Shown here piece by piece: positions 10,415 to 61,731 of a stretch of 64,000 bases of DNA (positions within the stretch are counted from its first letter, which is position 1; the number at the start of each line of letters is the position of its first letter). The notes beneath the pieces were generated by a model, which did no database searches, was not told where the DNA came from, and saw nothing but the letters and a program-made list of their open reading frames with translations. The translations under genes and the position numbers were made by a program. The stretch is from Escherichia phage vB_EcoM_ECO78: the sequence record PP526941.1; one strand, written 5' to 3'.

Positions 10415-11833
10415 TTATGGATAGGTATAGATGATACCAGTTTCTAAAGCAGTTTTGTGAATGATGTATCCATTACGCGATTCTTGGACATCAACTTCTG
10501 GATAATCTTTCATCATCTTCTGGAGAGTGTAACGATGCAGATAGTATTTACTATCTGGGTCTTCAGTTTTCCAATCTTTACCTTCTTCAGTCATTTTTTG
10601 AATTTCATCCATAACCCACCAACCGCACCAGATATAAGCTGAAGTACGATGTGGAAGAGGATGAACATAAGGCAATTCACCTTCTGGTTCTGGAGCAACT
10701 TTATCAGTCACTTGAACTTGACCTTCTGCTGTGATAGTTTTGCTATCATAATCAGTGGCAGTAACAGTTGCAGTAACTTCAATAGTTTGACTTCCAATAG
10801 ATGATGTATCAACGGTGTATACATTAGTTGACCCTTCTACAGGAGAAGAATCTTTCTTCCATGAATAAGTAATTTGTGCTTCTTCTGGAGCATCCGTAAC
10901 ATTAGCAGTAAATGTAGCCGAAGCATCTTGCTGAACGTTAATAGAAGGAGGAGTCAATGTAACCCGTGGATTCATTGTTTTCTTATTAACTGTCAATGAT
11001 ACTTCATTCGAAGTAACTTCCTTTTCATTGTAATTTTCAGCAGTTACTTGGGCTACGCATTTAATTCTTTTTACTCCACTTGTAGTTGGAGTATAGTTAA
11101 ATGTAGAGTTAGTTTCTCCACCAACTTGTGAATCATCTACATACCACTGATACGTAGCAGACGCTCCAACTGGTTGAGAAGCTAAGGCAGCAGTAAATTG
11201 AACTGGGGTTCCAATCACTCCAGCAGCAGGACTATCAGGAGTTACTGCCAAGGTAGTTGTCTGCGTCTTTTTATTAACAGTCAGTGACACTTCATTAGAA
11301 GTAACGCTTAGTGTATCATAATCTGTCGCGGTTACTTGAGCCACACACTTAATTGTTTTAACTCCGCTTGTGGTAGGAGTGTAATTGAATGTAGCAGAAG
11401 TTGCTTCGCCAACAGGAGAACCGTCAACGTGCCATTGATACGTAGCAGATGCACCTGGTGGCTGCGAAGCTAAAGCGGCAGTAAATTCAATAGCTGTTCC
11501 GATTACTCCAGCGTCAGGGCTATTAGGAGTTACAGCTAAGGTGGTCGTTTGTGTCTTATTTTGAACTGTGATAGTTGTAGTAGCTTCTGCTGTTTCAGCA
11601 TCAGTATCTGGAACTGTATTTGTTGCAACTACTTTAATAGTCTTTTGCCCGGCAGGTCCTTTTAGTACATAACTAAAAGTTGCTTCAGCTCCATCTTGTG
11701 GAACATCATCCACAGTCCAAGCATATGTAATAGTTCCGCCTCCAGTTTCACCACTGGGTGTAGCAGTAAACTGCTTAGTTTCATCAATAACCCCTGTCGA
11801 TGTTTTAGGAGTTATATCAACTGTAAAAGCCAT
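10415..11833 (-). CDS. hoc: highly immunogenic outer capsid protein Hoc with four tandem Ig-like domains
   Basis: 472 aa; N-terminal Ig-like domains and C-terminal capsid-binding region (ELPYVHPLPHR...IWCGWWVMDEI) recognised as Hoc; contains an internal 96-aa tandem duplication. Confidence 0.9.
   Translation of the reverse strand: MAFTVDITPKTSTGVIDETKQFTATPSGETGGGTITYAWTVDDVPQDGAEATFSYVLKGPAGQKTIKVVATNTVPDTDAETAEATTTITVQNKTQTTTLAVTPNSPDAGVIGTAIEFTAALASQPPGASATYQWHVDGSPVGEATSATFNYTPTTSGVKTIKCVAQVTATDYDTLSVTSNEVSLTVNKKTQTTTLAVTPDSPAAGVIGTPVQFTAALASQPVGASATYQWYVDDSQVGGETNSTFNYTPTTSGVKRIKCVAQVTAENYNEKEVTSNEVSLTVNKKTMNPRVTLTPPSINVQQDASATFTANVTDAPEEAQITYSWKKDSSPVEGSTNVYTVDTSSIGSQTIEVTATVTATDYDSKTITAEGQVQVTDKVAPEPEGELPYVHPLPHRTSAYIWCGWWVMDEIQKMTEEGKDWKTEDPDSKYYLHRYTLQKMMKDYPEVDVQESRNGYIIHKTALETGIIYTYP
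10979..11554 (-). repeat. in-frame tandem duplication (2 x 288 bp) inside hoc encoding two near-identical Ig-like domains
   Basis: Residues 94-189 and 190-285 of the translated protein are about 80 percent identical; the underlying DNA blocks are visibly similar. Confidence 0.8.
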
Positions 11834-12572: not shown

Positions 12573-13190
12573 ATGTACCACTTTGTATATGAAACAACAA
12601 ATCTAATAAATGGTAAAAAGTATATAGGAAAGCACTCTACTGATGACTTGAATGATGGTTACCTTGGTTCCGGTAAGGCAATTCAGCAGGCTATAAAGAA
12701 ATATGGTGAAAACAATTTCTCTAGAACAATACTAAAAGAGTTTAAAACTTCCGAAGAAGCGTACATGTATGAAGAAGAAATTATAACTCCTGAACTAATA
12801 AAAAGCAAAAATTATTATAATATGAAACCTGGTGGAATTGGTGGAATTGTTATGACTACAGATGTTATAGCAAAGATGAAAGAATCTTCCGCTAAAAGAT
12901 TTGAAAACTCACCGGGCACGGTATTAGGTAAAACTTGTTACACTAATGGAACTAAAAATATTTTTATTAAACCTGGAGAACTTGTTCCAGAAGGATTTGT
13001 AAAAGGGATGGTTCATCCTAATAGAAAGTCCAGAAAAGGATGTAAAGTCAAACCGACTACCACAGGAACTTTTTGGGTCAATAATGGCGCAATAAATAAA
13101 TTAATACAACCAGACGGTATTATTCCCGACGGATTTATTAAAGGTCGTCTCATGAAAAGAGATTCTAAAGGCAAATTTAGTAAGGCATAA
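12573..13190 (+). CDS. segE: GIY-YIG homing endonuclease, Seg family (position corresponds to T4 segE)
   Basis: 205 aa; N-terminal GIY-YIG module (YHFVYETTNLINGKKYIGKH ... YYNMKPGG); free-standing gene inserted between inh and uvsW; stop overlaps the uvsW start. Confidence 0.65.
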   Translation: MYHFVYETTNLINGKKYIGKHSTDDLNDGYLGSGKAIQQAIKKYGENNFSRTILKEFKTSEEAYMYEEEIITPELIKSKNYYNMKPGGIGGIVMTTDVIAKMKESSAKRFENSPGTVLGKTCYTNGTKNIFIKPGELVPEGFVKGMVHPNRKSRKGCKVKPTTTGTFWVNNGAINKLIQPDGIIPDGFIKGRLMKRDSKGKFSKA

Positions 13191-23577: not shown

Positions 23578-23607
23578 ACTATAACACAACACGAGGGACT
23601 TGTAAAC
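23578..23607 (-). promoter_or_regulatory. T4 early-type promoter (copy 1 of a duplicated promoter/leader cassette)
   Basis: Minus strand: GTTTACA (-35), 17-18 nt spacer, TATAGT (-10), leader ...CAUAACAUGAGGA to ATG; near-identical to 38401-38454. Confidence 0.55.
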
Positions 23608-25664
23608 TACATTTTGAACTTTTTAGACATTCCGTTGATGTTAACCAAAGAAGCTAAGATTTGAGAAACTTCATTTTCCTCTTCTTTTGATTCTTCTACA
23701 AGGAATTGATTAAATCCAGCCATTGGACGAACTTCACCAGTTTCCATTAGATGGTCGCCATCATATACCGATTCCTCTAATTGTTCAGAAGGAGGAACGA
23801 TTGTACCTTCGATTAGATACTTGTTATAAGCAGTTTCTTTCATAAAGTACGTACTTACTTTATTAATCTTCAGTAAAATTCCACGTGGTAGAATAACTTC
23901 AGCTTCTGATGGAAATCCTGATAAATGACCTGGAACGATAACTTTGATTCGTTCAGCTCCTTTAATTACCATACCCACGCTAGTTTCAGCATCTTCATTA
24001 GCATATGTAGAATGACTACCCATATGCATCAAATCTTCTGCATCAACGGAACCTTCTCCTTCACCAGAAAATACTGCGCCGGAATCATCTAGAGCCATAT
24101 AGTTTTTACCATGCTCGCCGAAGATATTTGGTTTAAGTGATGTTGATACGAAGTTCTTGAAATAGAACATTTTATTTTCAATGTTATGACGCAAAGTTTT
24201 AAAGGTAACTTCTTGTCCGCGATAAAGCGTAGTTCCTGGAGGAAGAACTGATCCTTTGGCAAAGGCAGAATCAAGCGTCTCAATATGTTTAATAGCTCGT
24301 TCCATATATTCTTCACGGGTAGAATCTGGTTTACCCAAAAGGAACGAGTTCATTTCAACATATGAATCTGCACAATAATCTTCAATTACATCAGATTCAG
24401 CTTGAGTTAATCCTTTTGGAGTTACTTCAGTACTTGCATATTCATACGCCTGAGCGGCAGATTCATTAATCAATTTATAAATGCCATTCATTACAAATTG
24501 AATAATAGCTGTCTTTTCATCTGGCGTGGCTTTAGAACCTTTAACTAAATCATTAATAATTTTCTTAATAACATCAAAGCTATTAGAAATATTAATGTCA
24601 GCAAGATCGCTTAAAATTTTATCAGTTTTATAATCAAAGAATTCTTTATTCTTTAAATATTCTTGAGAACCTTGATATGTTATATCGCTCTGCAACTTGA
24701 TAGATGGATCACGTAAACGTGCATGGGCTAATGCAATATGATTTCGGAAGTTTTCTAGTTCATAATCGCTAGATTTAAAACGAGAAGCACTTCTCATACC
24801 ACCAATAGCTCCTTTGTTGAAGTTTGAACCAATCTGAATAACGCCAGAGTTCATCGGACCTTCTGCTTTATATACCGGAACCTTAGATTCAAACTCTTGA
24901 TATTTCTTAGCAGCGAAGCTATCACCCTGAAGTGAAGCATCAACAGTAGAATATTGAGCTTGTGCTGCTAATCGACGACTAATTTTAGTTTTCTGAATAA
25001 CAGCTTGATCAGTGCGCTTATCATTTTCTAAAGCAATAGAAGCAGCAACAGCGACAGCTTTAGGAACAGCATTACCTGTTTTAACGTCTACATAAACATC
25101 ACCAACCTTTGATTCAACTTTTGTGAATAACTCAGTTGAAATAGGAGGTACACCTGGAATGTCTTCTAAATTGGCATTTTTACGGTAAACCATAATATAT
25201 GCATACTTTTTATCATAGTCCCAGATTTCCTTTAAAAGAACATAACGACCTGCTCCTTTAGTACGTACTAAACGGTCAGCAATAACTTGCATTTGACGAG
25301 CTGCGCCATTTGTTTTACTTTTTAGTACGCGGAATAAGCATGCATCAATTTTATACTGTTTCATTGTTTGAAGAGCAGTATCAAAAACAGCATTAATGAC
25401 ACCAATTGGATTTCCACCCAAGTTTTTAAGCTTAACCAGCGATAGTTTCTCATTAACACCTATCATTACGATATGCATCATTTTATCGCCTGGCTTAACG
25501 TTTTTATTTGTATCACCGCCAGAGGTGTATGTACAAAATCTAAATCCAGGAAGCACGCTTTCTTCACCAGCTTGAATAGCAAAAATTTGAGGTATTTTAT
25601 GCTTAGGATTTAAGTTAACAACCGGCGCCGAAGCGCCGTCAAATAATTCTGTAATAAGTTCCAT
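23607..25664 (-). CDS. Alt-like ADP-ribosyltransferase, downstream paralogue
   Basis: 685 aa; N-terminus MELITELFDGASAPVVNLNPKHKIPQIF parallels the upstream Alt; C-terminal R-S-E ART signature (YRGQ...FVSTSL...SEAEVILPRG). Confidence 0.8.
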   Translation of the reverse strand: MELITELFDGASAPVVNLNPKHKIPQIFAIQAGEESVLPGFRFCTYTSGGDTNKNVKPGDKMMHIVMIGVNEKLSLVKLKNLGGNPIGVINAVFDTALQTMKQYKIDACLFRVLKSKTNGAARQMQVIADRLVRTKGAGRYVLLKEIWDYDKKYAYIMVYRKNANLEDIPGVPPISTELFTKVESKVGDVYVDVKTGNAVPKAVAVAASIALENDKRTDQAVIQKTKISRRLAAQAQYSTVDASLQGDSFAAKKYQEFESKVPVYKAEGPMNSGVIQIGSNFNKGAIGGMRSASRFKSSDYELENFRNHIALAHARLRDPSIKLQSDITYQGSQEYLKNKEFFDYKTDKILSDLADINISNSFDVIKKIINDLVKGSKATPDEKTAIIQFVMNGIYKLINESAAQAYEYASTEVTPKGLTQAESDVIEDYCADSYVEMNSFLLGKPDSTREEYMERAIKHIETLDSAFAKGSVLPPGTTLYRGQEVTFKTLRHNIENKMFYFKNFVSTSLKPNIFGEHGKNYMALDDSGAVFSGEGEGSVDAEDLMHMGSHSTYANEDAETSVGMVIKGAERIKVIVPGHLSGFPSEAEVILPRGILLKINKVSTYFMKETAYNKYLIEGTIVPPSEQLEESVYDGDHLMETGEVRPMAGFNQFLVEESKEEENEVSQILASLVNINGMSKKFKM

Positions 25665-25667
25665 GAT

Positions 25668-27764
25668 TTATCCTTGAACGAACTTGTAAGGCATGTTTGT
25701 AATATCTATGCAAGACGCAATAATTCCAAGAGATGATTCTACTTTTTGTTTAACATTTGATGAAACAAACGATGCAAAGTCAACTCTGTCTTCTATTTCA
25801 ATATCACCTGTCATTGCAACTACTTCACCGGTTTCCATTAGACGGTCACCGTCATAAATTACTGATTCGGTGAGTTCTTCCGTAGTCATAACTTCAGCTT
25901 GAATGAGTTTTGTATTATTAGATGTTGTTCCGTCATTATTAGAAGCATCAGTTATTTTATTAACTTTGACCATCAATCCGCGTGGTAGAATAACTTCAGC
26001 TTCTGTTGCTATTCCGAGACTTCCTGGATATACAACATTAACTTTATGAGCTCCATCAATTGCCCATCCTATTTGAACTTTAACGTATTCAGGATTTTCT
26101 TTATACGCTCTTATTTCGTTTGGATTAATAGTTATTCCTTCTTCATTTTTATCAACTGTCAATTCATTACGAGCTTCTGGTTCTAAAAGACCAATACCAG
26201 CATGCGTAATTCCAAAACGTCCAAAAATGATAGGAGTTAAAGAAGTAGATACAAAATTTCTGAAATAAAACACTTTATTTTTAACTAGTGCTTCGTATAT
26301 AGGAGCAGTCATGCTTTGAGCACGATAAACTGTAATGCCTTCTGGTATACGGTCACCGTTTTCAAAAGCTGAATCTAAGTTATTTATAGCAGATTCAATT
26401 TCTTTTTCACTCATTACATCATATCGTTCTGGATTGTAGCGACCCAAAAGAAGATTATTGATGTCAGTATATCCTGAACCGCAATACTCTCTAATGCCGC
26501 GCTTTTGTGATGGAGTATATTTAGAACCATCACGGGCAATAGTAATATCAATCATTGGACCTGCACCAATTCCAGAAAAGCTATAAATCATTCGTTTGAG
26601 GAATTTAGTTTTTGCTGCGTTCCAGGAATTTTTAGTTATTTCTTCCCAGACTTCATCTGGCTGTCCTTTACGGGTTTTATTATGTTTATCAAGCCAATTA
26701 TCTTTATATTCTTCAAAGAATTTATTAACAGCTGCTGCGTATTTCTCTAAACATTTTATTGAAGTAGTTGGTTCATTTTTAATCGCATTAAGAATTACAT
26801 CTTTAATTTTTTCAGAAACTTCATCAACCTCACTTTTTGAAAAGAATTTATAGTCATAGTGAAGTTCATTTGCAGTTCCTTCAGCAATAATTTTTGCTGC
26901 CTTAGTTTTAGAAGCTAATGAATTAATTCCAAGCTTCATTTCTTCTGCTTCGGGAATTAAAGGAGCGGTAGCAGGTTTATTAAAATTAGCTGCGGTAGAT
27001 TCATACTTCTGGAATAATTCACTTTCAAATCTAGAAGATTCTAATGATTGACTTTGCGCAATTGCTCTACGGGAAATTTTAACTTTAACAATAACAGCTT
27101 GGTCAGAACGTTTATCATTTTCTTGTGCAATAGATGCTGCAATTGCCTCATTTTTAGTTACTTGAGCTCCAGTATCTTTATTGATATAAACATCACCGAC
27201 CTTCGATTCAACTTTAGTAAAGAGCTCGGTACTAATTTCCGGAACTCCTGGAATGTCTTCTAGTGATACATTTTTGCGATGTATAAGAATATATGCATAC
27301 TTTTTATCATAATCCCAGAGTTCCTTAAGAAGGACGTATCTGCCACCTGAACGACTACGGATGAGCCTATCAGCAATAACTTGAATTTGTCGAGCTTGGC
27401 CAGCAGTTTTAGACTTAAGAATACGAAGCATACAAGCATCAATTTTATACTGACGCATAGTTTGCATTGCAACAGTAAAAACTGAATTGATATAATTAAT
27501 TGGGCTTGGTCCAAGACCTTTTAATTTAGCAATTGAACCTTTAGCAGTTAATGTAAAAGGAACAATATGCATCATTTTATCGCCCATCTTTAAATCACGA
27601 TTAGTATCACCTCCAGATGTATAGGTACATAAACGAAAGCCTGGTTGTTCAATTGCATCATCAACATGAACTGAAAAAATTTGCGGTATTTTCTTCTTTG
27701 GATTTAAGTTTGTAATCGGAAGAGTAGTATCTTCGTCAAATAATTCTGTAATGAGTTCCATCAT
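25668..27764 (-). CDS. alt: NAD-protein ADP-ribosyltransferase Alt (head-packaged)
   Basis: 698 aa (697 if started at the second ATG, 27761); N-terminal capsid-targeting region MELITELFDEDTT...; C-terminal ART motifs YRAQ...FVSTSL...TEAEVILPRG; late promoter upstream. Confidence 0.88.
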   Translation of the reverse strand: MMELITELFDEDTTLPITNLNPKKKIPQIFSVHVDDAIEQPGFRLCTYTSGGDTNRDLKMGDKMMHIVPFTLTAKGSIAKLKGLGPSPINYINSVFTVAMQTMRQYKIDACMLRILKSKTAGQARQIQVIADRLIRSRSGGRYVLLKELWDYDKKYAYILIHRKNVSLEDIPGVPEISTELFTKVESKVGDVYINKDTGAQVTKNEAIAASIAQENDKRSDQAVIVKVKISRRAIAQSQSLESSRFESELFQKYESTAANFNKPATAPLIPEAEEMKLGINSLASKTKAAKIIAEGTANELHYDYKFFSKSEVDEVSEKIKDVILNAIKNEPTTSIKCLEKYAAAVNKFFEEYKDNWLDKHNKTRKGQPDEVWEEITKNSWNAAKTKFLKRMIYSFSGIGAGPMIDITIARDGSKYTPSQKRGIREYCGSGYTDINNLLLGRYNPERYDVMSEKEIESAINNLDSAFENGDRIPEGITVYRAQSMTAPIYEALVKNKVFYFRNFVSTSLTPIIFGRFGITHAGIGLLEPEARNELTVDKNEEGITINPNEIRAYKENPEYVKVQIGWAIDGAHKVNVVYPGSLGIATEAEVILPRGLMVKVNKITDASNNDGTTSNNTKLIQAEVMTTEELTESVIYDGDRLMETGEVVAMTGDIEIEDRVDFASFVSSNVKQKVESSLGIIASCIDITNMPYKFVQG

Positions 27765-44958: not shown

Positions 44959-45002
44959 TTAGCACCTTATATAAATTATAATACATTTTATGAAGCTAAT
45001 AA

Positions 45003-45362
45003 TCAATACGGTTTAGCATCAAATTTTCTTTCAATTTCAGGCGTAAAATACAATTCTTTACCACGCTTGGAAAAGCGACCAATAATATGATAATTATTCT
45101 CATCAAACGTGATATTGCCGATATCCATAGCTTTCAACCAAATATCGATATTTCTGTCAAGCTTTATATCAAAATTCCAATATGGAGAACTATTACCAAA
45201 AATACTACAAGCGGATTCAGTGAAACAACTGCTATAAATCTTGTCTTTAGGAACTACTAATTGATAGACACCTTTAATAAACTGAGGACCCTGCCATTTT
45301 GGTTGTTTCGCGTCTTTTTCTAATAGAATAGGGTAATAATTAAAATTCATATTTTCCGCCAC
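45003..45362 (-). CDS. hypothetical protein inserted between frd and td
   Basis: 119-aa ORF with ATG start; no motif recognised. Confidence 0.55.
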   Translation of the reverse strand: MAENMNFNYYPILLEKDAKQPKWQGPQFIKGVYQLVVPKDKIYSSCFTESACSIFGNSSPYWNFDIKLDRNIDIWLKAMDIGNITFDENNYHIIGRFSKRGKELYFTPEIERKFDAKPY

Positions 45363-45370
45363 GTGTTATT

Positions 45371-50576: not shown

Positions 50577-53500
50577 ATGGCCGAGATTAAAAGAAAGTTC
50601 AGAGCAGAAGATGGTCTGGACGCAGGTGGTGATAAAATAATCAACGTAGCTTTAGCTGATCGTACCGTAGGAACTGACGGTGTTAACGTTGATTACTTAA
50701 TTCAAGAAAACACAGTTCAACAATATGATCCAACTCGTGGATATTTAAAAGATTTTGTAATCATTTATGATAACCGCTTTTGGGCTGCTATAAATGATAT
50801 TCCAAAACCAGCAGGAGCTTTTAATAGCGGACGCTGGAGAGCATTACGTACGGACGCAAACTGGATTACAGTCTCATCTGGTTCATATCAATTAAAATCC
50901 GGTGAAGCTATTTCGGTTAACACTGCAGCTGGTAATGACATCACGTTTACTTTACCATCTTCTCCAATTGATGGTGATACTATCGTTCTCCAAGATATTG
51001 GAGGAAAACCTGGAGTTAACCAAGTTTTAATTGTAGCTCCAGTGCAAAGTATTGTAAACTTCAGAGGTGAACAAGTACGTTCAGTACTAATGACTCATCC
51101 AAAGTCACAGCTAGTTTTAATTTTTAGTAATCGTCTGTGGCAAATGTATGTTGCTGATTATAGTAGAGAAGCTATAGTTGTAACACCAGCGAATACTTAT
51201 CAAGCGCAATCAAATGATTTTATCGTACGTAGATTTACTTCTGCTGCACCGATAAATATTAAACTTCCACGATTTGCTAATCATGGCGATATTATTAATT
51301 TCGTTGATTTAGATAAACTAAATCCACTTTATCATACAATTGTTACTACATACGATGAAACGACTTCAGTACAAGAAGTTGGAACTCATTCCATTGAAGG
51401 CCGTACAACGATTGACGGTTTCTTGATGTTTGATGATAATGAGAAATTGTGGAGATTGTTTGACGGGGATAGTAAAGCGCGTTTACGTATCATAACGACT
51501 AATTCTAATATTCGTCCAAATGAAGAAGTTATGGTATTTGGTGCGAATAACGGAACAGCTCAGACAATTGAGCTTAAGCTTCCAACTAATATTTCTGTTG
51601 GTGATACTGTTAAAATTTCCATGAATTACATGAGAAAAGGACAAACAGTTAAAATCAAAGCTGCTGATGAAGATAAAATTGCTTCTTCAGTTCAATTGCT
51701 GCAATTCCCAAAACGCTCAGAATATCCACCTGAAGCTGAATGGGTTACAGTCCAAGAATTAGTTTTTAATGGTGAAACTAATTATGTTCCAGTTTTAGAG
51801 CTTGCTTATATAGAAGATTCTGATGGAAAATACTGGGTTGTACAGCAAAATGTTCCAACCGTAGAAAGAGTTGATTCTTTGAATGATTCTACTAGAGCAA
51901 GATTAGGCGTAATTGCTTTAGCTACACAAGCCCAAGCTAATGTCGATTTAGAAAATTCTCCGCAAAAAGAATTAGCAATTACTCCAGAAACATTAGCTAA
52001 CCGTACTGCTACTGAAACTCGCAGAGGTATTGCAAGAATAGCAACTACTGCTCAAGTGAATCAGAACACCACATTCTCTTTTGCTGACGATATTATCATC
52101 ACTCCTAAAAAGCTGAATGAAAGAACTGCTACAGAAACTCGCAGAGGTGTTGCTGAAATTGCTACGCAACAGGAAACTAATGCAGGAACCGATGATACTA
52201 CAATCATCACTCCTAAAAAGCTTCAAGCTCGTCAAGGTTCTGAATCATTATCTGGTATCGTAACTTTTGTATCTACTGCAGGTGCTACTCCAGCTTCTAG
52301 CCGTGAATTAAATGGTACGAATGTTTATAATAAAAACACTAATAATTTAGTTGTTTCACCTAAAGCTTTGGATCAGTATAAAGCTACTCCAACACAGCAA
52401 GGTGCAGTAATTTTAGCAGTTGAAAGTGAAGTAATTGCTGGACAAAGTCAGGAAGGATGGGCAAATGCAGTTGTAACGCCAGAAACGTTACATAAAAAGA
52501 CATCAACTGATGGAAGAATTGGTTTAATTGAAATTGCTACGCAAAGTGAAGTTAATACAGGAACTGATTATACTCGTGCAGTCACTCCTAAAACTTTAAA
52601 TGACCGTAGAGCAACTGAAAGTTTAAGTGGTATAGCTGAAATTGCTACACAAGTTGAATTCGACGCAGGCGTCGACGATACTCGTATCTCTACACCATTA
52701 AAAATTAAAACCAGATTTAATAGTACTGATCGTACTTCTGTTGTTGCTCTATCTGGATTAGTTGAATCAGGAACTCTCTGGGACCATTATACCCTTAATA
52801 TTCTTGAAGCAAATGAGACACAACGTGGTACACTTCGTGTAGCTACACAAGTTGAAGCTGCTGCAGGAACATTAGATAATGTTTTAATAACTCCTAAAAA
52901 GCTTTTAGGTACTAAATCTACCGAATCGCAAGAAGGTGTTATTAAAGTTGCAACACAGTCTGAAACTGTGACTGGAACGTCAGCAAATACTGCTGTATCT
53001 CCAAAAAATTTAAAGTGGATTGTGCAGAGTGAACCAACATGGGCTGCTACTACGGCGATAAGAGGGTTTGTTAAAACTTCATCTGGTTCAATTACATTCG
53101 TTGGTAATGATACAGTCGGTTCTACACAGGACTTAGAGTTATACGAGAAAAATAATTATGCAGTATCACCATATGAATTAAACCGCGTACTTGCTAACTA
53201 TTTGCCATTGAAAGCAAAAGCTGCAGATAGTAATTTATTGGATGGTCTAGATTCATCTCAGTTCATTCGTAGGGATATTGCCCAGACAGTTAATGGTTCA
53301 CTAACCTTAACCCAACAAACGAATCTGAGTGCCCCTCTTGTATCATCTAGTACTGCTACGTTTGGTGGTTCAGTTTCGGCAAATAGTACATTAACTATTT
53401 CTAACTCTGGAACAGCAACTCGTCTGATTTTTGAGAAAGGACCTCAAACTGGAACTAATCCAGCGCAGACGATGACTATCAGAGTTTGGGGAAATCAGTT

Positions 53501-54446
53501 TGGCGGCGGATCAGATACAACACGTTCTACTGTATTTGAAGTTGGTGATGAAACGTCTAATCATTTTTATTCTCAACGTAATAAAGCTGGTAATATAACG
53601 TTTAGCATTAATGGTACTGTGATGCCAATAAATGTTAACGCTTCAGGCACGTTGAATGCGAATGGCGTTGCAACATTCGGTCGTTCAGTTACAGCCAATG
53701 GTGAATTCATTAGCAAGTCTGCAAATGCTTTTAGAGCAATTAGTGGTGATTACGGATTCTTTATTCGTAATGATGCTGCTAATACCTATTTTATGCTCAC
53801 TGCATCCGGTGATCAGACTGGCGGATTTAATGGATTACGTCCTTTGGCTATTAATAATGCATCTGGCCAAGTAACGATTGGTGAAAGCTTAATCATTGCC
53901 AAAGGTGCTACTATAAATTCAGGTGGTTTGACTGTTAACTCGAGAATTCGTTCTCAGGGTAATAAAACATCTGATTTATATACCCGTGCACCAACATCTG
54001 ATACAGTAGGATTCTGGTCAATTGATATTAATGATTCAGCTACTTATAACCAGTTCCCAGGTTATTTTAAAATGGTTGAAAAAACTAATGAAGTGACTGG
54101 ACTTCCATACTTAGAACGTGGCGAAGAAGTTAAATCTCCTGGTACACTGACTCAGTTTGGTAATACACTTGATTCGCTTTACCAAGATTGGATTACTTAT
54201 CCAACGACGCCAGAAGCACGTACCACTCGCTGGACACGTACATGGCAGAAAACCAAAAACTCTTGGTCAAGTTTTGTTCAGGTATTTGACGGAGGTAACC
54301 CTCCTCAACCATCTGATATCGGTGCTTTACCATCTGATAATGCTACAATGGGAAATCTTACTATTCGTGATTTCTTACGAATTGGTAATGTTCGCATTGT
54401 TCCTGACCCAGTGAATAAAACGGTTAAATTTGAATGGGTTGAATAA
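50577..54446 (+). CDS. 34: long tail fibre proximal subunit gp34
   Basis: 1289 aa, the T4 gp34 length; repetitive beta-rich fibre sequence; synteny. Confidence 0.95.
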   Translation: MAEIKRKFRAEDGLDAGGDKIINVALADRTVGTDGVNVDYLIQENTVQQYDPTRGYLKDFVIIYDNRFWAAINDIPKPAGAFNSGRWRALRTDANWITVSSGSYQLKSGEAISVNTAAGNDITFTLPSSPIDGDTIVLQDIGGKPGVNQVLIVAPVQSIVNFRGEQVRSVLMTHPKSQLVLIFSNRLWQMYVADYSREAIVVTPANTYQAQSNDFIVRRFTSAAPINIKLPRFANHGDIINFVDLDKLNPLYHTIVTTYDETTSVQEVGTHSIEGRTTIDGFLMFDDNEKLWRLFDGDSKARLRIITTNSNIRPNEEVMVFGANNGTAQTIELKLPTNISVGDTVKISMNYMRKGQTVKIKAADEDKIASSVQLLQFPKRSEYPPEAEWVTVQELVFNGETNYVPVLELAYIEDSDGKYWVVQQNVPTVERVDSLNDSTRARLGVIALATQAQANVDLENSPQKELAITPETLANRTATETRRGIARIATTAQVNQNTTFSFADDIIITPKKLNERTATETRRGVAEIATQQETNAGTDDTTIITPKKLQARQGSESLSGIVTFVSTAGATPASSRELNGTNVYNKNTNNLVVSPKALDQYKATPTQQGAVILAVESEVIAGQSQEGWANAVVTPETLHKKTSTDGRIGLIEIATQSEVNTGTDYTRAVTPKTLNDRRATESLSGIAEIATQVEFDAGVDDTRISTPLKIKTRFNSTDRTSVVALSGLVESGTLWDHYTLNILEANETQRGTLRVATQVEAAAGTLDNVLITPKKLLGTKSTESQEGVIKVATQSETVTGTSANTAVSPKNLKWIVQSEPTWAATTAIRGFVKTSSGSITFVGNDTVGSTQDLELYEKNNYAVSPYELNRVLANYLPLKAKAADSNLLDGLDSSQFIRRDIAQTVNGSLTLTQQTNLSAPLVSSSTATFGGSVSANSTLTISNSGTATRLIFEKGPQTGTNPAQTMTIRVWGNQFGGGSDTTRSTVFEVGDETSNHFYSQRNKAGNITFSINGTVMPINVNASGTLNANGVATFGRSVTANGEFISKSANAFRAISGDYGFFIRNDAANTYFMLTASGDQTGGFNGLRPLAINNASGQVTIGESLIIAKGATINSGGLTVNSRIRSQGNKTSDLYTRAPTSDTVGFWSIDINDSATYNQFPGYFKMVEKTNEVTGLPYLERGEEVKSPGTLTQFGNTLDSLYQDWITYPTTPEARTTRWTRTWQKTKNSWSSFVQVFDGGNPPQPSDIGALPSDNATMGNLTIRDFLRIGNVRIVPDPVNKTVKFEWVE

Positions 54447-55632: not shown

Positions 55633-56295
55633 ATGGCTGATTTAAAAGTAGGTTCAACAACCGGGGGCTCTGTCATTTGGCATCAAGGAAATTTTCCATT
55701 GAATCCAGCCGGTGACGATGTACTCTATAAATCATTTAAAATATATTCAGAATATAATAAACCACAAGCTGCTGATAACGATTTCGTTTCTAAAGCTAAT
55801 GGTGGTACTTACGCCGCGACTGTTCGATTTAATGGAGGCGTACATGTTCCTACTATAGGTAGTAGTCAACAGTGTGGTGTTTATCCAGGTAACGGTGATG
55901 CAGCTACTTTTGCTATGGCAAATATTGACATCGTTTCGTGGAATGGTATTGGTTTTAAATCATCACAAGGTTCAGCAGACCGAACTGTTGTAATTAACGC
56001 TCGTACCGGTGATATCAGCAGTAAGGGCGGTTTTTATGCAACTGGTCCTGTCCGTTCTAACGCTACTGCTCCGGTTGCAGCAAATGACCTTACTAGAAAG
56101 GACTATGTTGATGGAGCAATAAATACTGTTACGGAAAATGCGAACTCTAGAGTGTTACGATCTGGCGACACTATGACGGGTAACTTAACCGCACCAAATT
56201 TTTTCTCGCAGAATCCTGCGTCTCAACCTTCACACGTTCCACGATTTGACCAAATCGTAATTAAGGATTCTGTTCAAGATTTCGGCTATTATTAA
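55633..56295 (+). CDS. 36: long tail fibre distal connector gp36
   Basis: 220 aa; synteny. Confidence 0.9.
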
Positions 56296-56303
56296 GAGGA
56301 CTT

Positions 56304-59300
56304 ATGGCTACTTTAAAACAAATACAATTTAAAAGAAGCAAAACCGCAGGTGCACGTCCTGCTGCTTCAGTATTAGCCGAAGGTGAATTGGCTATAAACT
56401 TAAAAGATAGAACACTTTTTACTAAAGATGATTCGGGAAATATCATTGATCTAGGTATTGCTAAAGGCGGTCAAATTGATGGAAATGTGACTATCAATGG
56501 TCTTTTAAGATTAAATGGGGATTATACACAAACTGGTGGAATGACCGTAAATGGACCTATTGGTTCTACTGAAGGCGTATCCGCCTTAGTTTTTAGATCT
56601 ATGCGAGGGTCATTTTACGCAAGAGCAACAAATGATACTTCCAATGCCCATCTTTGGTTTGAAAATACAAATGGATCAGAGAGAGGGGTTTTATATTCAA
56701 AACCACAGTCTGAAAATGAAGGCGTAATTACAATGCGTGTTCGTCAAGGAACCGCTGCGGGAGCTCAAAATTCAGAATTTCATTTCATTTCTACTGATGG
56801 CGGTATCTTCCAGGCACGCAAATTAACTGCTTTAACTTCTATTAGTACACCAACTATTAGTGTTAATTTAATTAATCATGATTCTAAAGCCTTTGGACAA
56901 TACGATTCGCAATCATTAGTTCAGTATGTTTATCCTGGAACTGGTGAAACTAACGGAGTAAACTATCTTCGTAAAGTTCGAGCTAAATCAGGTGGCACTA
57001 TGTGGCATGAGCTTTGTACTGCTCAGACTGGCCAGGCTGATGAAATGTCTTGGTGGACAGGTAATACTCCATCATCTAAACAATATGGCATTCGTAATGA
57101 CGGACGAATGGCAGGCCGTAATAGCCTTGCATTAGGTACATTCACTACGGGTTTCCCGTCTAGTGATTATGGTAACGTCGGTGTAATGGGCGATAAGTAT
57201 CTTGTTCTCGGTGACACTGTAACCGGTCTGAAATATATTAAGCAAGGTGTTTATGATTTAGTTGGTGGAGGTTATTCCGTTGCATCTGTTACTCCAGATA
57301 GTTTCCGTAGTACTCGTAAAGGTATATTTGGTCGCTCAGAAGACCAAGGTGCTACATGGAACATGCCTGGAAACAACGCCGCGTTTTTATCGGTTCAAAC
57401 ACAAGCTGATGAAAACACTGCTGGAGACGGCCAGACACATATTGGCTATAACTCAGGCGGTAAAATGAACCACTATTTCCGTGGTAAAGGCAAAACTAAT
57501 ATTAATACTCAAGAAGGCATGGAAGTTAACCCGGGTATTCTTAAACTAGTAACCGGTGCTAACAGTATTAGCTTTAACGCTGCAACAGGTAATATTGATT
57601 CTACATTAGCTTTTCGTCTTAATAAAGGTATAATTATTGATGGACCTGATAATCAGGGATTCCAATTTAATGCTCCGACGGCTGTAGATGGTACTAGAAG
57701 CATATACTGGAATAGTGGCACTCGCGCAGGTCAAAACAAAAACCCTGTTACAGTTAAAGTGTGGGGTAATTCATTTAACGCATCTGGTGATCGTAGTCGT
57801 GAAACCGTTTTTGAAGTAGCTGATGGGCAAGGTTACCATTTTTATTCTCAACGCGTAGCTCCTGCACCTGGTTCGACTGTCGGGCCTATTCAACTCCGAG
57901 TTAATGGTGGTTTATTAACTTCTGGTGGTATTACTGCTTCCGGTTCTATTGTTACTGAATCAAGTTTAGTTGCAAATAATGGATTATCTGTAAATGGTCA
58001 GGCTAAATTTGGCGGAACAGCAAACGCACTAAGAATTTGGAACGCTGAATATGGTGCTATTTTCCGTCGTTCGGAAAGTAACTTTTATATTATTCCAACC
58101 AATCAAAACGAAGGCGAAAGCGGAGACATTCACAGCTCTTTGAGACCTGTGAGAATAGGATTAAACGATGGCATGGTTGGGTTAGGAAGAGATTCTTTTA
58201 TAGTAGATCAAAATAATGCTTTAACTACTATAAACAGTAACTCTCGCATTAATGCCAACTTTAGAATGCAATTAGGACAAAATGCTTATATAGATATTGA
58301 GGCTTCTGATGGAATTCGCCCAACAGGTTGTGGTTCCTTTGCATCTCAGAATGACGTAAACGTCAGAGCTCCAATTTATATGAATATAGAGCGTACTGCT
58401 ACTTCTGAATATATTCCTATTGTTAAACAGCGTTATGTGCAAGGTGATAGCACTTATTCTATTGGGACATTAATTAATCAAGGAGATTTCCGTGTTCATT
58501 ACCGCCAAGGCACCGGTACGGGTGGCACTGATTTGAGTTGGGAATTCCGTCGCACAGGCGATTTCCGCGCGGCAGGTAAAATTATTGCTGGTGCTGCTAC
58601 TCTTGGCACTGATGGTAATATCACCGGTGGTTCTGGTAACTTTGCTAACCTGAATACCACATTAAATCGTAAGGTAAATTCCGGATTTGTAACATACGGT
58701 GCAACGGCCGGATGGTACAAATTCGCTACAGTAACGATGCCACAATCTACTTCTACTGTTTCATTTACTATAACTGGTGGTAAAGGATTTAATACCGGAC
58801 TGTTTACACAATGTGCTATAACAGAAATTGTTCTTCGTACTGGTAATGACCGCCCAGCAGGTTTAAACGCCGTGATGTATACCAGAACAGCGGCAGGTCT
58901 TACTGATATTGCTGTAGTTAATACCTCAGGAAATACATATGATGTCTATGTTGAAGCTGGCACTTATGCCAACCAATTAGCTTATACCTGGCATACAGTT
59001 GATAATGCTACCGTAGAAGTTATTGGCGCTTTTGGTCCTACTCAAGACCCGGTAGATTCTTTGCCGGCTAATTATGTTAAAGGCCAAGTAGCTAACATGC
59101 TTAACAACCTGGTAGACACAGGTAAAGTAAAACGTTATGTAGCAGATTCTGAAATTGCTATTAATAACCAAACGGGTCTTCGTATTACGAGTAATTATGA
59201 TAGATCAGGTTCTAATTCCGTTTTGTTTCGAAATGACGGTGGAAGCTTCTATATTTTACTGACTGACAAAAACTCTTCAGACGGCGATAATAAAGCAACT

Positions 59301-60227
59301 GAAGGTGATTGGAATGGAAAACGACCATTTTCAATTGATATGACTGCTGGTACTGTTCGTCTTGGCGAAAATACTTCTTTTAGTAAAGATGTTACTATTG
59401 ATGGAAACATTAATTCACGAGTTAAAGTTGTCGGACAGTGGAATGTTAGCTTTTCTGATATTTCAGATGTGACTCGTGACCGTTCTGCATTTTTAGTGAA
59501 TACGGGTGGCATTTCCAATACAAGTCAATCTTATTACCCGCTATTTTCTGGATACAGTTTTTTAACTGACGCGGGTTATCGCCAATCGTTTGAATTTGGA
59601 TGGTTAGGTGTTTCTGGTACTTGGCGTCAAGGTATTATTCGCATGCGTGGTGACAACGCATCGGGGCAACAGGCTCGTTGGACTTTTGATATGGATGGAA
59701 CATTTTATGCTCCTAAATTGGCTTGCGGTTCTACCGGTGCCCTCGGTATTAACACATCCAACGGATGGGGTGGTAACTCAATTGCAATTGGTGATAGCGA
59801 TACTGGTTTTAGACAAGTAGGCGATGGGCTTTTAGAAGCGTGGGCGAACAACGTTAAAGTTGTTAGATTCACTTCGAGCGAAGTTTATTCCGAGAAAAAC
59901 GTCAATGCTCCTAACGTTTATATTCGTTCTGATGTTCGCTTGAAATCTAATTTTAAACCTATTAAAAATGCGCTCGAAAGGGTTGAGCAACTTGATGGTT
60001 TAATCTATGACAAAGCTGAATATATAGGCGGTGAACCTGTTCAAACTGAAGCGGGTATTATAGCTCAAACGTTACAAGACGTTTTACCAGAAGCTGTCCG
60101 TGAATCAGAAGATAGCAAGGGTAATAAAATACTCACTGTTTCTTCTCAAGCCCAGATTGCTCTTCTGGTTGAAGCTGTGAAAACACTTTCTGCTCGTGTA
60201 AAAGAACTTGAATCTAAACTTATGTAA
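56304..60227 (+). CDS. 37: long tail fibre distal subunit gp37, T2-type, with C-terminal intramolecular chaperone domain
   Basis: 1307 aa; conserved N-terminus; C-terminal about 99 aa begin with the SDxRLK motif typical of autocleaving intramolecular chaperone (S74-like) domains. Confidence 0.9.
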
Positions 60228-60228
60228 A

Positions 60229-60246
60229 AGAGGGCTTCGGCCCTCT
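60229..60246 (+). terminator. GC hairpin (AGAGGGC-UUCG-GCCCUCU) between genes 37 and 38
   Basis: Perfect 7-bp stem with UUCG loop followed by AAGGAUUUUUA, which contains the gene 38 SD. Confidence 0.45.
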
Positions 60247-60257
60247 AAGGATTTTTA

Positions 60258-61043
60258 ATGGCAATTGTAGGTGTTCCTGGCTGGATTGGTGAATCTGCTG
60301 TGAATGAAACTGGACAACGTTGGATGGATGCTGCGATGAAAGCTGTTCGTGTTTCAGTTCCCGGCTGGATGAGCTCAATGGCTGGACAATCTAAAGAAAT
60401 TCATTATAGCATTGGTGCTAGCAATTCTTACAATAAAGACACTCTTATTAACTGGATGAAAGCACAGGGGTCTACTCCGGTAGTAATTACTATTACAGGA
60501 AATATTGTTTCTTCATCGACAGGTCAACCATGCTTAGATTTTCCTAGCTCATTAACTAATGCATACGTGACACTTAATATCAATTCAGGCGTGCATGTTT
60601 GGGGTCGCGGCGGGAATGGTGGAAATAACTCTGCTGGCGGAGCAGGAGGAACTGCAATAAATAACGGAATTGGAACTAGATTACGTATTAATAACAATGG
60701 TGTTATCGCAGGCGGCGGTGGCGGCGGTGGCGGCGGATACTACTCTCCTTTTTCACAAATGAGATTGACTTTTGGTGGAGGAGGCGGTCGTCCATTTGGT
60801 GCGGCTGGCGGGTCTGCTAATATGGAACAGGGTGCTACTGCTGGTACTATTTCTGCGCCCGGTAAAGGGTCTGTCAACGGTATCTATAATGGCGGGAATG
60901 GTGGTGATGCCGGTGCCGCAGGAGGTAAATGTAATATTCGCGGTCAAGGATCAGAATATAATGGCGGCGCTGCTGGTAAAGCTGTTACTGGTAATGCTCC
61001 AACTTGGACTAAAGTTGGTACAATATATGGTGCAAGAGTATAA
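60258..61043 (+). CDS. 38: T2-type receptor-recognising adhesin gp38 (glycine-rich motifs)
   Basis: 261 aa; C-terminal half built from glycine-rich tracts (GRGGNGGNNSAGGAGG, GGGGGGGGGY, FGGGGGRPFGAAGG, NGGNGGDAGAAGG) separated by short variable segments. Confidence 0.85.
   Translation: MAIVGVPGWIGESAVNETGQRWMDAAMKAVRVSVPGWMSSMAGQSKEIHYSIGASNSYNKDTLINWMKAQGSTPVVITITGNIVSSSTGQPCLDFPSSLTNAYVTLNINSGVHVWGRGGNGGNNSAGGAGGTAINNGIGTRLRINNNGVIAGGGGGGGGGYYSPFSQMRLTFGGGGGRPFGAAGGSANMEQGATAGTISAPGKGSVNGIYNGGNGGDAGAAGGKCNIRGQGSEYNGGAAGKAVTGNAPTWTKVGTIYGARV
60711..60737 (+). repeat. 9-bp tandem repeat (GGCGGCGGT x3) encoding a poly-glycine tract in gp38
   Basis: Three consecutive near-identical 9-mers read directly in the sequence. 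Confidence 0.8.
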
Positions 61044-61074
61044 TTTTGAATAAATATCCTTAAAAGGAGGGTCT

Positions 61075-61731
61075 ATGGCAGCACCTAGAATATCATTTTC
61101 GCCCTCTGATATTCTGTTGGGTGTTCTAGATCGCTTGTTCAAAGATAACGCTACCGGGAAGGTTCTTGCTTCCCGGGTAGCTGTCGTAATTCTTTTGTTT
61201 ATGATGGCGATTGTTTGGTATAGGGGAGATAGTTTCTTTGAGTACTATAAGCAATCAAAGTATGAAACATACAGTGAAATTATTGAAAAGGAAAGAAATG
61301 CACGCTTTGAATCTGTCGCCCTGGAACAACTCCAGATAGTTCATATATCATCTGAGGCAGACTTTAGTGCGGTGTATTCTTTCCGCCCTAAAAACTTAAA
61401 CTATTTTGTTGATATTATAGCATATGAAGGAAAATTACCTTCAACAATAAGTGAAAAATCACTTGGAGGATATCCTGTTGATAAAACTATGGATGAATAT
61501 ACAGTTCATTTAAATGGACGTCATTATTATTCCAACTCAAAATTTGCTTTTTTACCAACTAAAAAGCCTACTCCTGAAATAAATTACATGTACAGTTGTC
61601 CATATTTTAATTTGGATAATATCTATGCTGGAACGATAACCATGTACTGGTATAGAAATGATCATATAAGTAATGACCGCCTTGAATCAATATGTTCTCA
61701 GGCGGCCAGAATATTAGGAAGGGCTAAATAA
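61075..61731 (+). CDS. t: holin T
   Basis: 218 aa; N-terminal TM segment and large periplasmic domain; sequence recognised as the T4-type holin; AAAGGAGG SD. Confidence 0.92.
   Translation: MAAPRISFSPSDILLGVLDRLFKDNATGKVLASRVAVVILLFMMAIVWYRGDSFFEYYKQSKYETYSEIIEKERNARFESVALEQLQIVHISSEADFSAVYSFRPKNLNYFVDIIAYEGKLPSTISEKSLGGYPVDKTMDEYTVHLNGRHYYSNSKFAFLPTKKPTPEINYMYSCPYFNLDNIYAGTITMYWYRNDHISNDRLESICSQAARILGRAK

Follow-up and report, generated by a model that had tools for sequence, protein, structure and literature searches.

The 64 kb of the Escherichia phage vB_EcoM_ECO78 genome (PP526941.1) that we analysed, hereafter the window, carries the long-tail-fibre genes in the order 34-35-36-37-38-t. 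The subject here is the distal part of this locus, genes 37 and 38 (56304-61043), which an earlier description made without database searches (the sequence-only reading) had interpreted as a T2-like fibre cassette set in a T4-like core. Relatives' records were sought in a phage collection, and T4 (NC_000866) and T2 (LC348380), with their annotation, served as references. Over positions 1-50000 the window is ~96-97% identical in nucleotide (nt) sequence, along its full length, to hundreds of Escherichia, Shigella, Yersinia and Serratia T-even phage records; it is a portion of a Tequatrovirus (T-even phage) genome.

The product of gene 37, the distal half-fibre protein gp37, is 1307 amino acids (aa) long, against 1026 aa in T4 and 1341 aa in T2. 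Pfam places Peptidase_S74 ('chaperone of endosialidase') in both the window gp37 and T2 gp37, and Collar and Phage_fiber instead in T4 gp37. Neither Collar nor Phage_fiber was found by Pfam in the window gp37, and no solved T4 gp37 structure was matched when the protein was compared with PDB sequences. The sequence-only reading, which had assigned gp37 with its chaperone tail to the T2 type rather than the T4 type, was therefore correct on this point. The S74 domain opens on an SDVRLK motif, of which we take Ser1209 and Lys1214 to be the catalytic pair from what is generally known of the endosialidase chaperone family. Moreover, aa 1154-1305 match chain A of PDB 6F45 (phmmer, 1.2e-9), the gp37 tip fragment of Salmonella phage S16 that was crystallised together with gp38. 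We infer that the mature, gp38-bearing tip is encoded at 59763-59927.

Comparison with the two reference proteins by BLASTP divides gp37 in a different way. Colinearity with T4 gp37 is limited to aa 1 to ~790 (68% identity), a stretch that includes an 85-aa block and a 14-residue motif; past aa ~790, just after this motif, no homology to T4 gp37 was detected. T2 gp37 aligns from end to end, at 62% identity. At aa 61-200 the window gp37 has a module in common with T4 and not with T2. The exact 1307-aa protein has no record in a large assembly collection.

Gene 38 is the sole open reading frame (ORF) between genes 37 and t, and no T4-type gene 38 lies in that interval. Its 261-aa product matches the Pfam families GP38 (6.9e-72; 242 bits, cut-off 25) and Gp38_N (7.2e-18), and T2 gp38 (262 aa) gives the same pattern. 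T4 gp38 (183 aa), in contrast, has no Pfam match and shows no similarity to the window protein (E=22). The structure of the S16 adhesin (PDB 6F45_D) is matched over aa 8-259 (1.9e-48). Glycine accounts for 23% of the whole protein and 34% of aa 116-261, and in an alignment of gp38 proteins invariant Gly blocks stand on either side of the variable segments. These results agree with the Gly-rich, T2-type gp38 that had been proposed.

The two parts of gp38 have different affinities. Over aa 1-115 the protein is 76.5% identical to T2 and 47.0% to T6, and the DNA at 60100-60300 is 96-98% identical to all T2-type relatives. Over the C-terminal specificity domain (aa 116-261), identity is 99.3% to phage NR1, 98.6% to Bas39 (FriedrichMiescher, MZ501066), 79.5% to T6 and 54.6% to T2, and hypervariable segments (HVS) 2-4 are nearly as in T6. 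The whole of gp38 is 95-98% identical in 31 phage records, which include NR1, IME339, KFS-EC3, slur02/04, teqsoen and Bas39. Codon differences between the window gene and that of Bas39 comprise 51 synonymous and 8 non-synonymous changes, and we therefore regard this gp38 allele as conserved and under purifying selection.

Table 1. Features of the long-tail-fibre locus in the window.
Feature	Positions	Strand	Evidence or remark
Gene 34, proximal half-fibre, 1289 aa	50577-54446	+	ORF; colinear with T4/T2 gene 34
Gene 35, hinge connector, 371 aa	54455-55570	+	ORF; 92-99% to T4/T2
Gene 36, distal connector, 220 aa	55633-56295	+	ORF; internal swapped patch at ~55700-56100
Gene 37, distal half-fibre, T2/S16 type, 1307 aa	56304-60227	+	ORF; Pfam
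Conserved 5′ end of gene 37; with the 3′ end of gene 36, the upstream conserved island	56304-56414	+	
Variable proximal shaft modules of gene 37	56415-58025	+	~80% to T4, lower to T2
Conserved island in gene 37, aa 575-659 (85 aa)	58026-58280	+	Near-identical protein stretch versus T4 and T2 gp37; nt 93-97% to both at 58000-58200
14-residue motif, aa 771-784	58614-58655	+	Last block common to T4 gp37; T4-type/T2-type distal-end junction
Distal shaft confined to T2-type fibres	58656-59762	+	No T4 match, weak T2 match
Start of S16-tip-like stretch (aa 1154-1305, continuing through the chaperone domain)	59763-59927	+	phmmer; KFS-EC3 best relative, 97-99%
Intramolecular chaperone domain Peptidase_S74, aa 1209-1266	59928-60101	+	Pfam 1.7e-13
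Intercistronic hairpin GAGGGC-UUCG-GCCCUC, genes 37/38	60230-60245	+	Read from sequence; then AAGGA and the gene 38 ATG
Gene 38, 261 aa	60258-61043	+	ORF; start 31 nt past gene 37
Gene 38 N-terminal part, aa 1-115, including attachment domain, T2 class	60258-60602	+	Pfam Gp38_N
Gene 38 C-terminal specificity domain, aa 116-261, Gly-rich motifs and hypervariable segments, T6/Bas39 (Tsx) class	60603-61043	+	Pfam GP38
Gene t (holin)	61075-61731	+	ORF; backbone-level identity again

To place the edges of the divergent region, identity to T4 and T2 was profiled in 200-nt windows across the fibre genes. Identity to T4 is 95-100% over most of genes 34-36 and drops to ~80% from ~56400-56415, which is ~100 nt into gene 37 (near codon 37). 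One conserved T4 island follows at 58000-58200 (95.5% and 87%). Nucleotide matches to T4 are then lost after ~58600-58650, and no 200-nt window over 58700-60900 has a T4 match. Homology is back at ~61050 (98% at 61050-61100, the gene 38 stop), reaching 95-100% again from 61100; from this point the sequence is 97-100% identical to T4, T2, T6 and all relatives. The match to T2 is absent or partial (~20-70 identical bases per 100) over 56400-57700 and 58400-59800, stands at ~82-92 identical bases per 100 at 57700-58200, and is missing over much of 60400-60900 before T2 homology returns at 60963. Only 59900-60400 is T2-like (82-97.5%), a stretch reaching from the C-terminal chaperone of gp37 across the intergenic region into the N-terminus of gp38. 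In total, T2 aligns to 49% of 56304-61043, at 82.4% identity, and most 200-nt windows of 56400-59800 and 60400-60900 have 0-60% of their bases identical to T2.

There is thus a sharp local change at genes 37-38, and divergence from T4 is confined to part of the window rather than uniform across it, as the sequence-only reading had anticipated. Its two further statements about the region held in part. The region is a T2-like cassette in design, as the Pfam domains demonstrate, but it does not derive from T2, given the extent and level of the T2 alignment and the 54.6% identity of the gp38 specificity domains. Similarly, the downstream edge does lie at the end of gene 38, whereas the switch in design upstream is found at aa 771-790 (nt ~58614-58660) and not in the 5′ part of gene 37. 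The upstream side therefore has two nested boundaries: divergence begins near codon 37, and the change from T4-type to T2-type design occurs ~60% into gene 37.

The mosaic structure of the locus was reconstructed with 10 references, namely the fibre loci of seven relatives and T6, plus T4 and T2, and a minimal-switch path was drawn through the seven relatives. In the phage collection no single phage matches all of genes 37-38 at backbone level, the best full-length identity being 86-89.5%. The best relative differs between sub-regions: 236Ecol005PP (PP434423) at 56400-58000 (92.6%), 310Ecol104PP (OR062946) at 58200-59800 (93.6%), and either KFS-EC3 (94.8%) or NR1 (93.8%) at 59800-61050. Across genes 36-38 nearly every 200-nt window, apart from 56400-56600 and the one at 58500, is 93-100% identical to at least one of the seven relatives and T6, and which of them matches best shifts along the locus. 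We had considered 56400-56720 as a novel segment, as the best of the 10 references there is T4 at 78%, and this was ruled out by matches to UFV13 (99.1%) and ime09 (98.8%).

The minimal-switch path resolves 56706-61731 into nine segments that are 94.4-99.6% identical to their nearest relative; that at 56706-57038, for example, is 98.8% identical to 310Ecol104PP. A perfect run of 537 nt (57386-57922) is shared with 236Ecol005PP, whose gene 37 is otherwise ~88% identical, and a run of this length has a probability of about 1e-30 per start position. In the triplet formed by the window, 310Ecol104PP and 236Ecol005PP, the 455 informative sites fall into 56 runs, compared with 222±10 after shuffling, and none of 10000 shuffles gave so low a number. 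The distal shaft shows the same alternation, being 96-99% identical to 310Ecol104PP, T-01 and 236Ecol005PP in alternating blocks. The exact gp37 is not on record and its pieces are all known; therefore it is the combination that is new and not the components.

Inferred crossover intervals are 8-110 nt wide. Three of the nine (KFS-EC3 to 310Ecol104PP, 310Ecol104PP to NR1 and NR1 to KFS-EC3) fall in well-conserved sequence with 88-98% invariant columns. Two of these three are located early in gene 38 (its first third), immediately 3′ of the conserved block formed by the gp37 C-terminus and the gp38 N-terminus, and the third is at the 3′ end of gene 38. The interval for the switch from 236Ecol005PP to 310Ecol104PP (58603-58649) overlaps the 14-residue motif. 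At the upstream conserved island (~56221-56434) six of the seven relatives share uninterrupted identity of 140-199 nt with the window, Bas39 shares 94 nt, and 95-96% of columns are invariant. The path placed no crossover in the aa 575-659 block of gp37, though this block is conserved versus T4 and T2. Mosaicism reaches past genes 37-38. A patch of gene 34 (~53000-53900) is 66-90% identical to T4, 20-91% to T2 and 95-98% to 310Ecol104PP and Bas39. The patch inside gene 36 matches T4 and T2 partially (38-72 identical bases per 100) and NR1, T-01 and 236Ecol005PP at 94-99%. We set aside the idea that a diversity-generating retroelement, or a homing endonuclease close by, drove the mosaicism, as no extra ORF is present between genes 36 and t.

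Taken together, these data make it very probable that the region is a Tequatrovirus distal long-tail-fibre module of the T2/T6/S16 design, assembled as a fine recombination mosaic and bearing a Tsx-type adhesin. By analogy with fibres of this design, gp37 would form a trimeric distal half-fibre whose C-terminal S74 chaperone (Ser1209/Lys1214) would aid folding and then be released by self-cleavage. The separate Gly-rich adhesin gp38 would cap the tip and bind the receptor Tsx via its hypervariable loops. The pattern of segments suggests that T-even phages infecting the same cell exchanged DNA repeatedly by homologous recombination, which gave rise to the mosaic. A part of these exchanges may have taken place in or beside short conserved islands, namely where genes 36 and 37 meet (the upstream limit of the variable block), at the 14-residue motif and at the end of gene 38.

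Two points weigh against this account in its simplest form. Four of the crossovers were placed where conservation is poor (9-37% invariant columns), and recombination at conserved islands therefore fails to explain every junction. Furthermore, the 'donors' are the nearest sequenced relatives and not true parents, so that the number and order of exchanges are not established by the path.

A mosaic of this kind could also be produced during assembly, if conserved islands allowed reads from co-occurring T-even phages to be joined into a chimeric contig. In favour of this, the large assembly collection has no record of the exact gp37, and some junctions are at conserved islands, where assemblers may switch haplotypes. 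However, every ORF is intact and in frame, and identity of the segments to their nearest relatives ranges over 94-99.6% instead of being 100% throughout. Moreover, a like mosaic exists between 310Ecol104PP and 236Ecol005PP, which were independently isolated and cloned (gene 37 87.9% identical), and mosaicism of fibre genes is experimentally documented in the literature. An assembly chimera is therefore unlikely.

The reading with which we began implied a simpler history, in which a T4-like phage took the gene 37-38 cassette of T2, or of a close T2 relative, in one double crossover with edges near the start of gene 37 and downstream of gene 38. The fall in T4 identity ~100 nt into gene 37 and its return at the gene 38 stop are consistent with this, as are the T2 design and the 96.5-97.5% identity to T2 at 60100-60300. 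The remainder of the evidence is not. The presumed T4-like core is just as near to T2: in 500-nt bins lying beyond 56001-61500, median identity reaches 97.0% for T4 and 96.6% for T2, with T4 ahead in 65 bins and T2 in 50, and hundreds of Tequatrovirus records stand at ~97%. Within the cassette, T2 aligns to only about half of the sequence, gp37 aa 61-200 resemble T4 and not T2, and the gp38 specificity domain is far closer to Bas39 than to T2. In place of a single cassette with two boundaries we find ~10 segments with differing nearest relatives, and further patches in genes 34 and 36. Lastly, it is the gp38-adhesin form that predominates (PMC3157838; 763 against 297 records, see below). We consider a single T2 transfer very improbable.

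It is scarcely credible that no recombination took place and that the fibre genes merely evolve faster, with high local substitution under host-range selection. Diversifying pressure does act on genes 37 and 38, and nowhere in the locus is conservation lower than in their variable regions. However, blocks alternate between two relatives, and the runs test refutes this reading; the 537-nt perfect run lies inside a gene that is 12% diverged overall, each segment is matched at 97-100% in some other phage, and the differences in gp38 are mainly synonymous.

T4 uses OmpC or lipopolysaccharide (LPS) as its receptor, and T2 uses FadL or OmpF. The gp38 specificity domain of the window groups with the adhesins of Tsx-dependent phages, by the pairwise identities to Bas39, T6 and T2 given above, and is nearly identical to that of Bas39. 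The primary receptor of Bas39 is Tsx (BASEL collection supplementary table S5), which is also used by T6 (PMC3157838), and gp38 adhesins that resemble each other recognise one receptor (PMC12032242). On the strength of the identities to Bas39 and T6, the predicted primary receptor is the nucleoside channel Tsx, which we regard as most likely. The phage thus very probably recognises a receptor other than that of T4, as had been suggested, with Tsx predicted in place of OmpC or LPS. Two published observations temper this prediction: one OmpA-binding group of gp38 is phylogenetically near the Tsx group (PMC12032242), and certain T-even phages require more than one receptor (PMC3157838). The Tsx prediction may be useful for host-range prediction or the design of phage cocktails.

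The fibre locus shares its gene order with T2, T6, Ox2, K3 and Salmonella phage S16 (PDB 6F45). With T2/T6/S16-type fibres it also shares the C-terminal S74 chaperone of gp37 and a gp38 of ~260 aa with an N-terminal attachment and a C-terminal specificity domain. Unlike T2, to which the level of identity is low in both gp37 and the specificity domain, and unlike T6, which differs in the first 115 aa of gp38 and has no gene 37 match in a 200-nt scan except over the first ~100 nt, the phages Bas39, NR1, IME339, KFS-EC3, slur02 and teqsoen have specificity domains 98.6-99.3% identical to that of the window. However, the gene 37 shafts of Bas39, NR1 and KFS-EC3 have little or no match over ~56400-59700, and their gp37 proteins are 1260-1298 aa long. 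The converse holds for 310Ecol104PP and 236Ecol005PP: their gp37 is likewise 1307 aa and colinear, and they alternate as the nearest relative in blocks of 97-100%, but gene 37 overall is 88-90% identical, and their gp38 specificity domains (~75%) have other HVS2 and HVS3. T4 shares the colinear proximal part of gp37 and flanks of ~97% identity, and differs in the absence of a homologous distal end, in the presence of Collar and Phage_fiber, and in its own type of gp38.

The predominant adhesin of the T4 superfamily is the gp38 of T2/T6 and not the version of T4 (Trojet 2011, PMC3157838), and the phage records point the same way, with T2-type gp38 in 763 cases and T4-type gp38 in 297, counts in which duplicates and other genera are included. 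According to PMC3157838, T4 carries lambda-like sequence in place of gene 38 and of the C-terminal part of an ancestral gene 37. The direction implied by the sequence-only reading is therefore not supported. As the gp38-adhesin form predominates and T4 is atypical, a T2-type fibre on such a backbone is the norm for the genus and no notable chimera. The main correction is thus conceptual, in that T4 is an atypical reference for the fibres of its genus. The feature itself is biologically ordinary, a new allele combination of a well-known and well-explained system. It is one more case of the modular shuffling already known for T-even tail-fibre genes and otherwise has chiefly annotation value.

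The two distal-end designs, a needle tip with a chaperone and a capped tip with an adhesin, are unrelated. The 14-residue motif (58614-58655) might be a preferred joint at which they are swapped, and the combination of a shaft like those of 310Ecol104PP and 236Ecol005PP, a KFS-EC3-like tip and a Tsx-type adhesin could give a host range that is not predictable from gp38 alone; we put this forward tentatively and consider it rather doubtful. Frequent modular shuffling of the long-tail-fibre locus via conserved motifs is described in a passage of PMC3157838 that cites Tetart 1998. Recombination at conserved fibre motifs being already in the literature, the idea of a preferred joint is a refinement.

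The hairpin between genes 37 and 38, a C(UUCG)G tetraloop immediately behind the gene 37 stop, has its equivalent in phage NR1, where the site is annotated as a terminator. The backbone of the window is that of a generic Tequatrovirus, about equally near T2 and T4, and its accessory genes are likewise mixed. Hairpins of the C(UUCG)G kind are a very stable intercistronic type and are classic in T4. T2-like features of the accessory content are the lack of the td and nrdB introns, segD, mobE and segG, and the presence of an extra alt paralogue; T4-like features are the presence of segE and the 30.x genes. Both introns had been reported as absent, which is confirmed by nrdB (392 aa) and td (286 aa) being unbroken ORFs and by the T4 intron sequences missing from the alignment. 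An extra domain in Hoc had likewise been reported: the protein is 472 aa long, against 376 aa in T4, with its Pfam immunoglobulin (Ig) and PKD matches displaced by ~96 aa. T4 positions 110749-111053 align twice to the window in hoc (10415-11833, - strand), which points to an internal duplication of ~300 nt that added about one Ig-like domain.

Three other intervals differ between the references. The td-frd interval of ~400 nt (44959-45370) contains no ORF of at least 150 aa and is 95.6% identical to T2 and 26.8% to T4 (45001 bin). Positions 23600-27000 are missing from T4 and 95-97% identical to T2. The T2 counterpart is a second full-length alt-like ADP-ribosyltransferase paralogue, and T4 keeps only the alt.-1/alt.-2 remnants there. 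Lastly, the homing-endonuclease gene segE (12573-13190, + strand) is 99-100% identical to T4 and not present in T2. The mobile-element content of the window is a blend of the T4 and T2 states.

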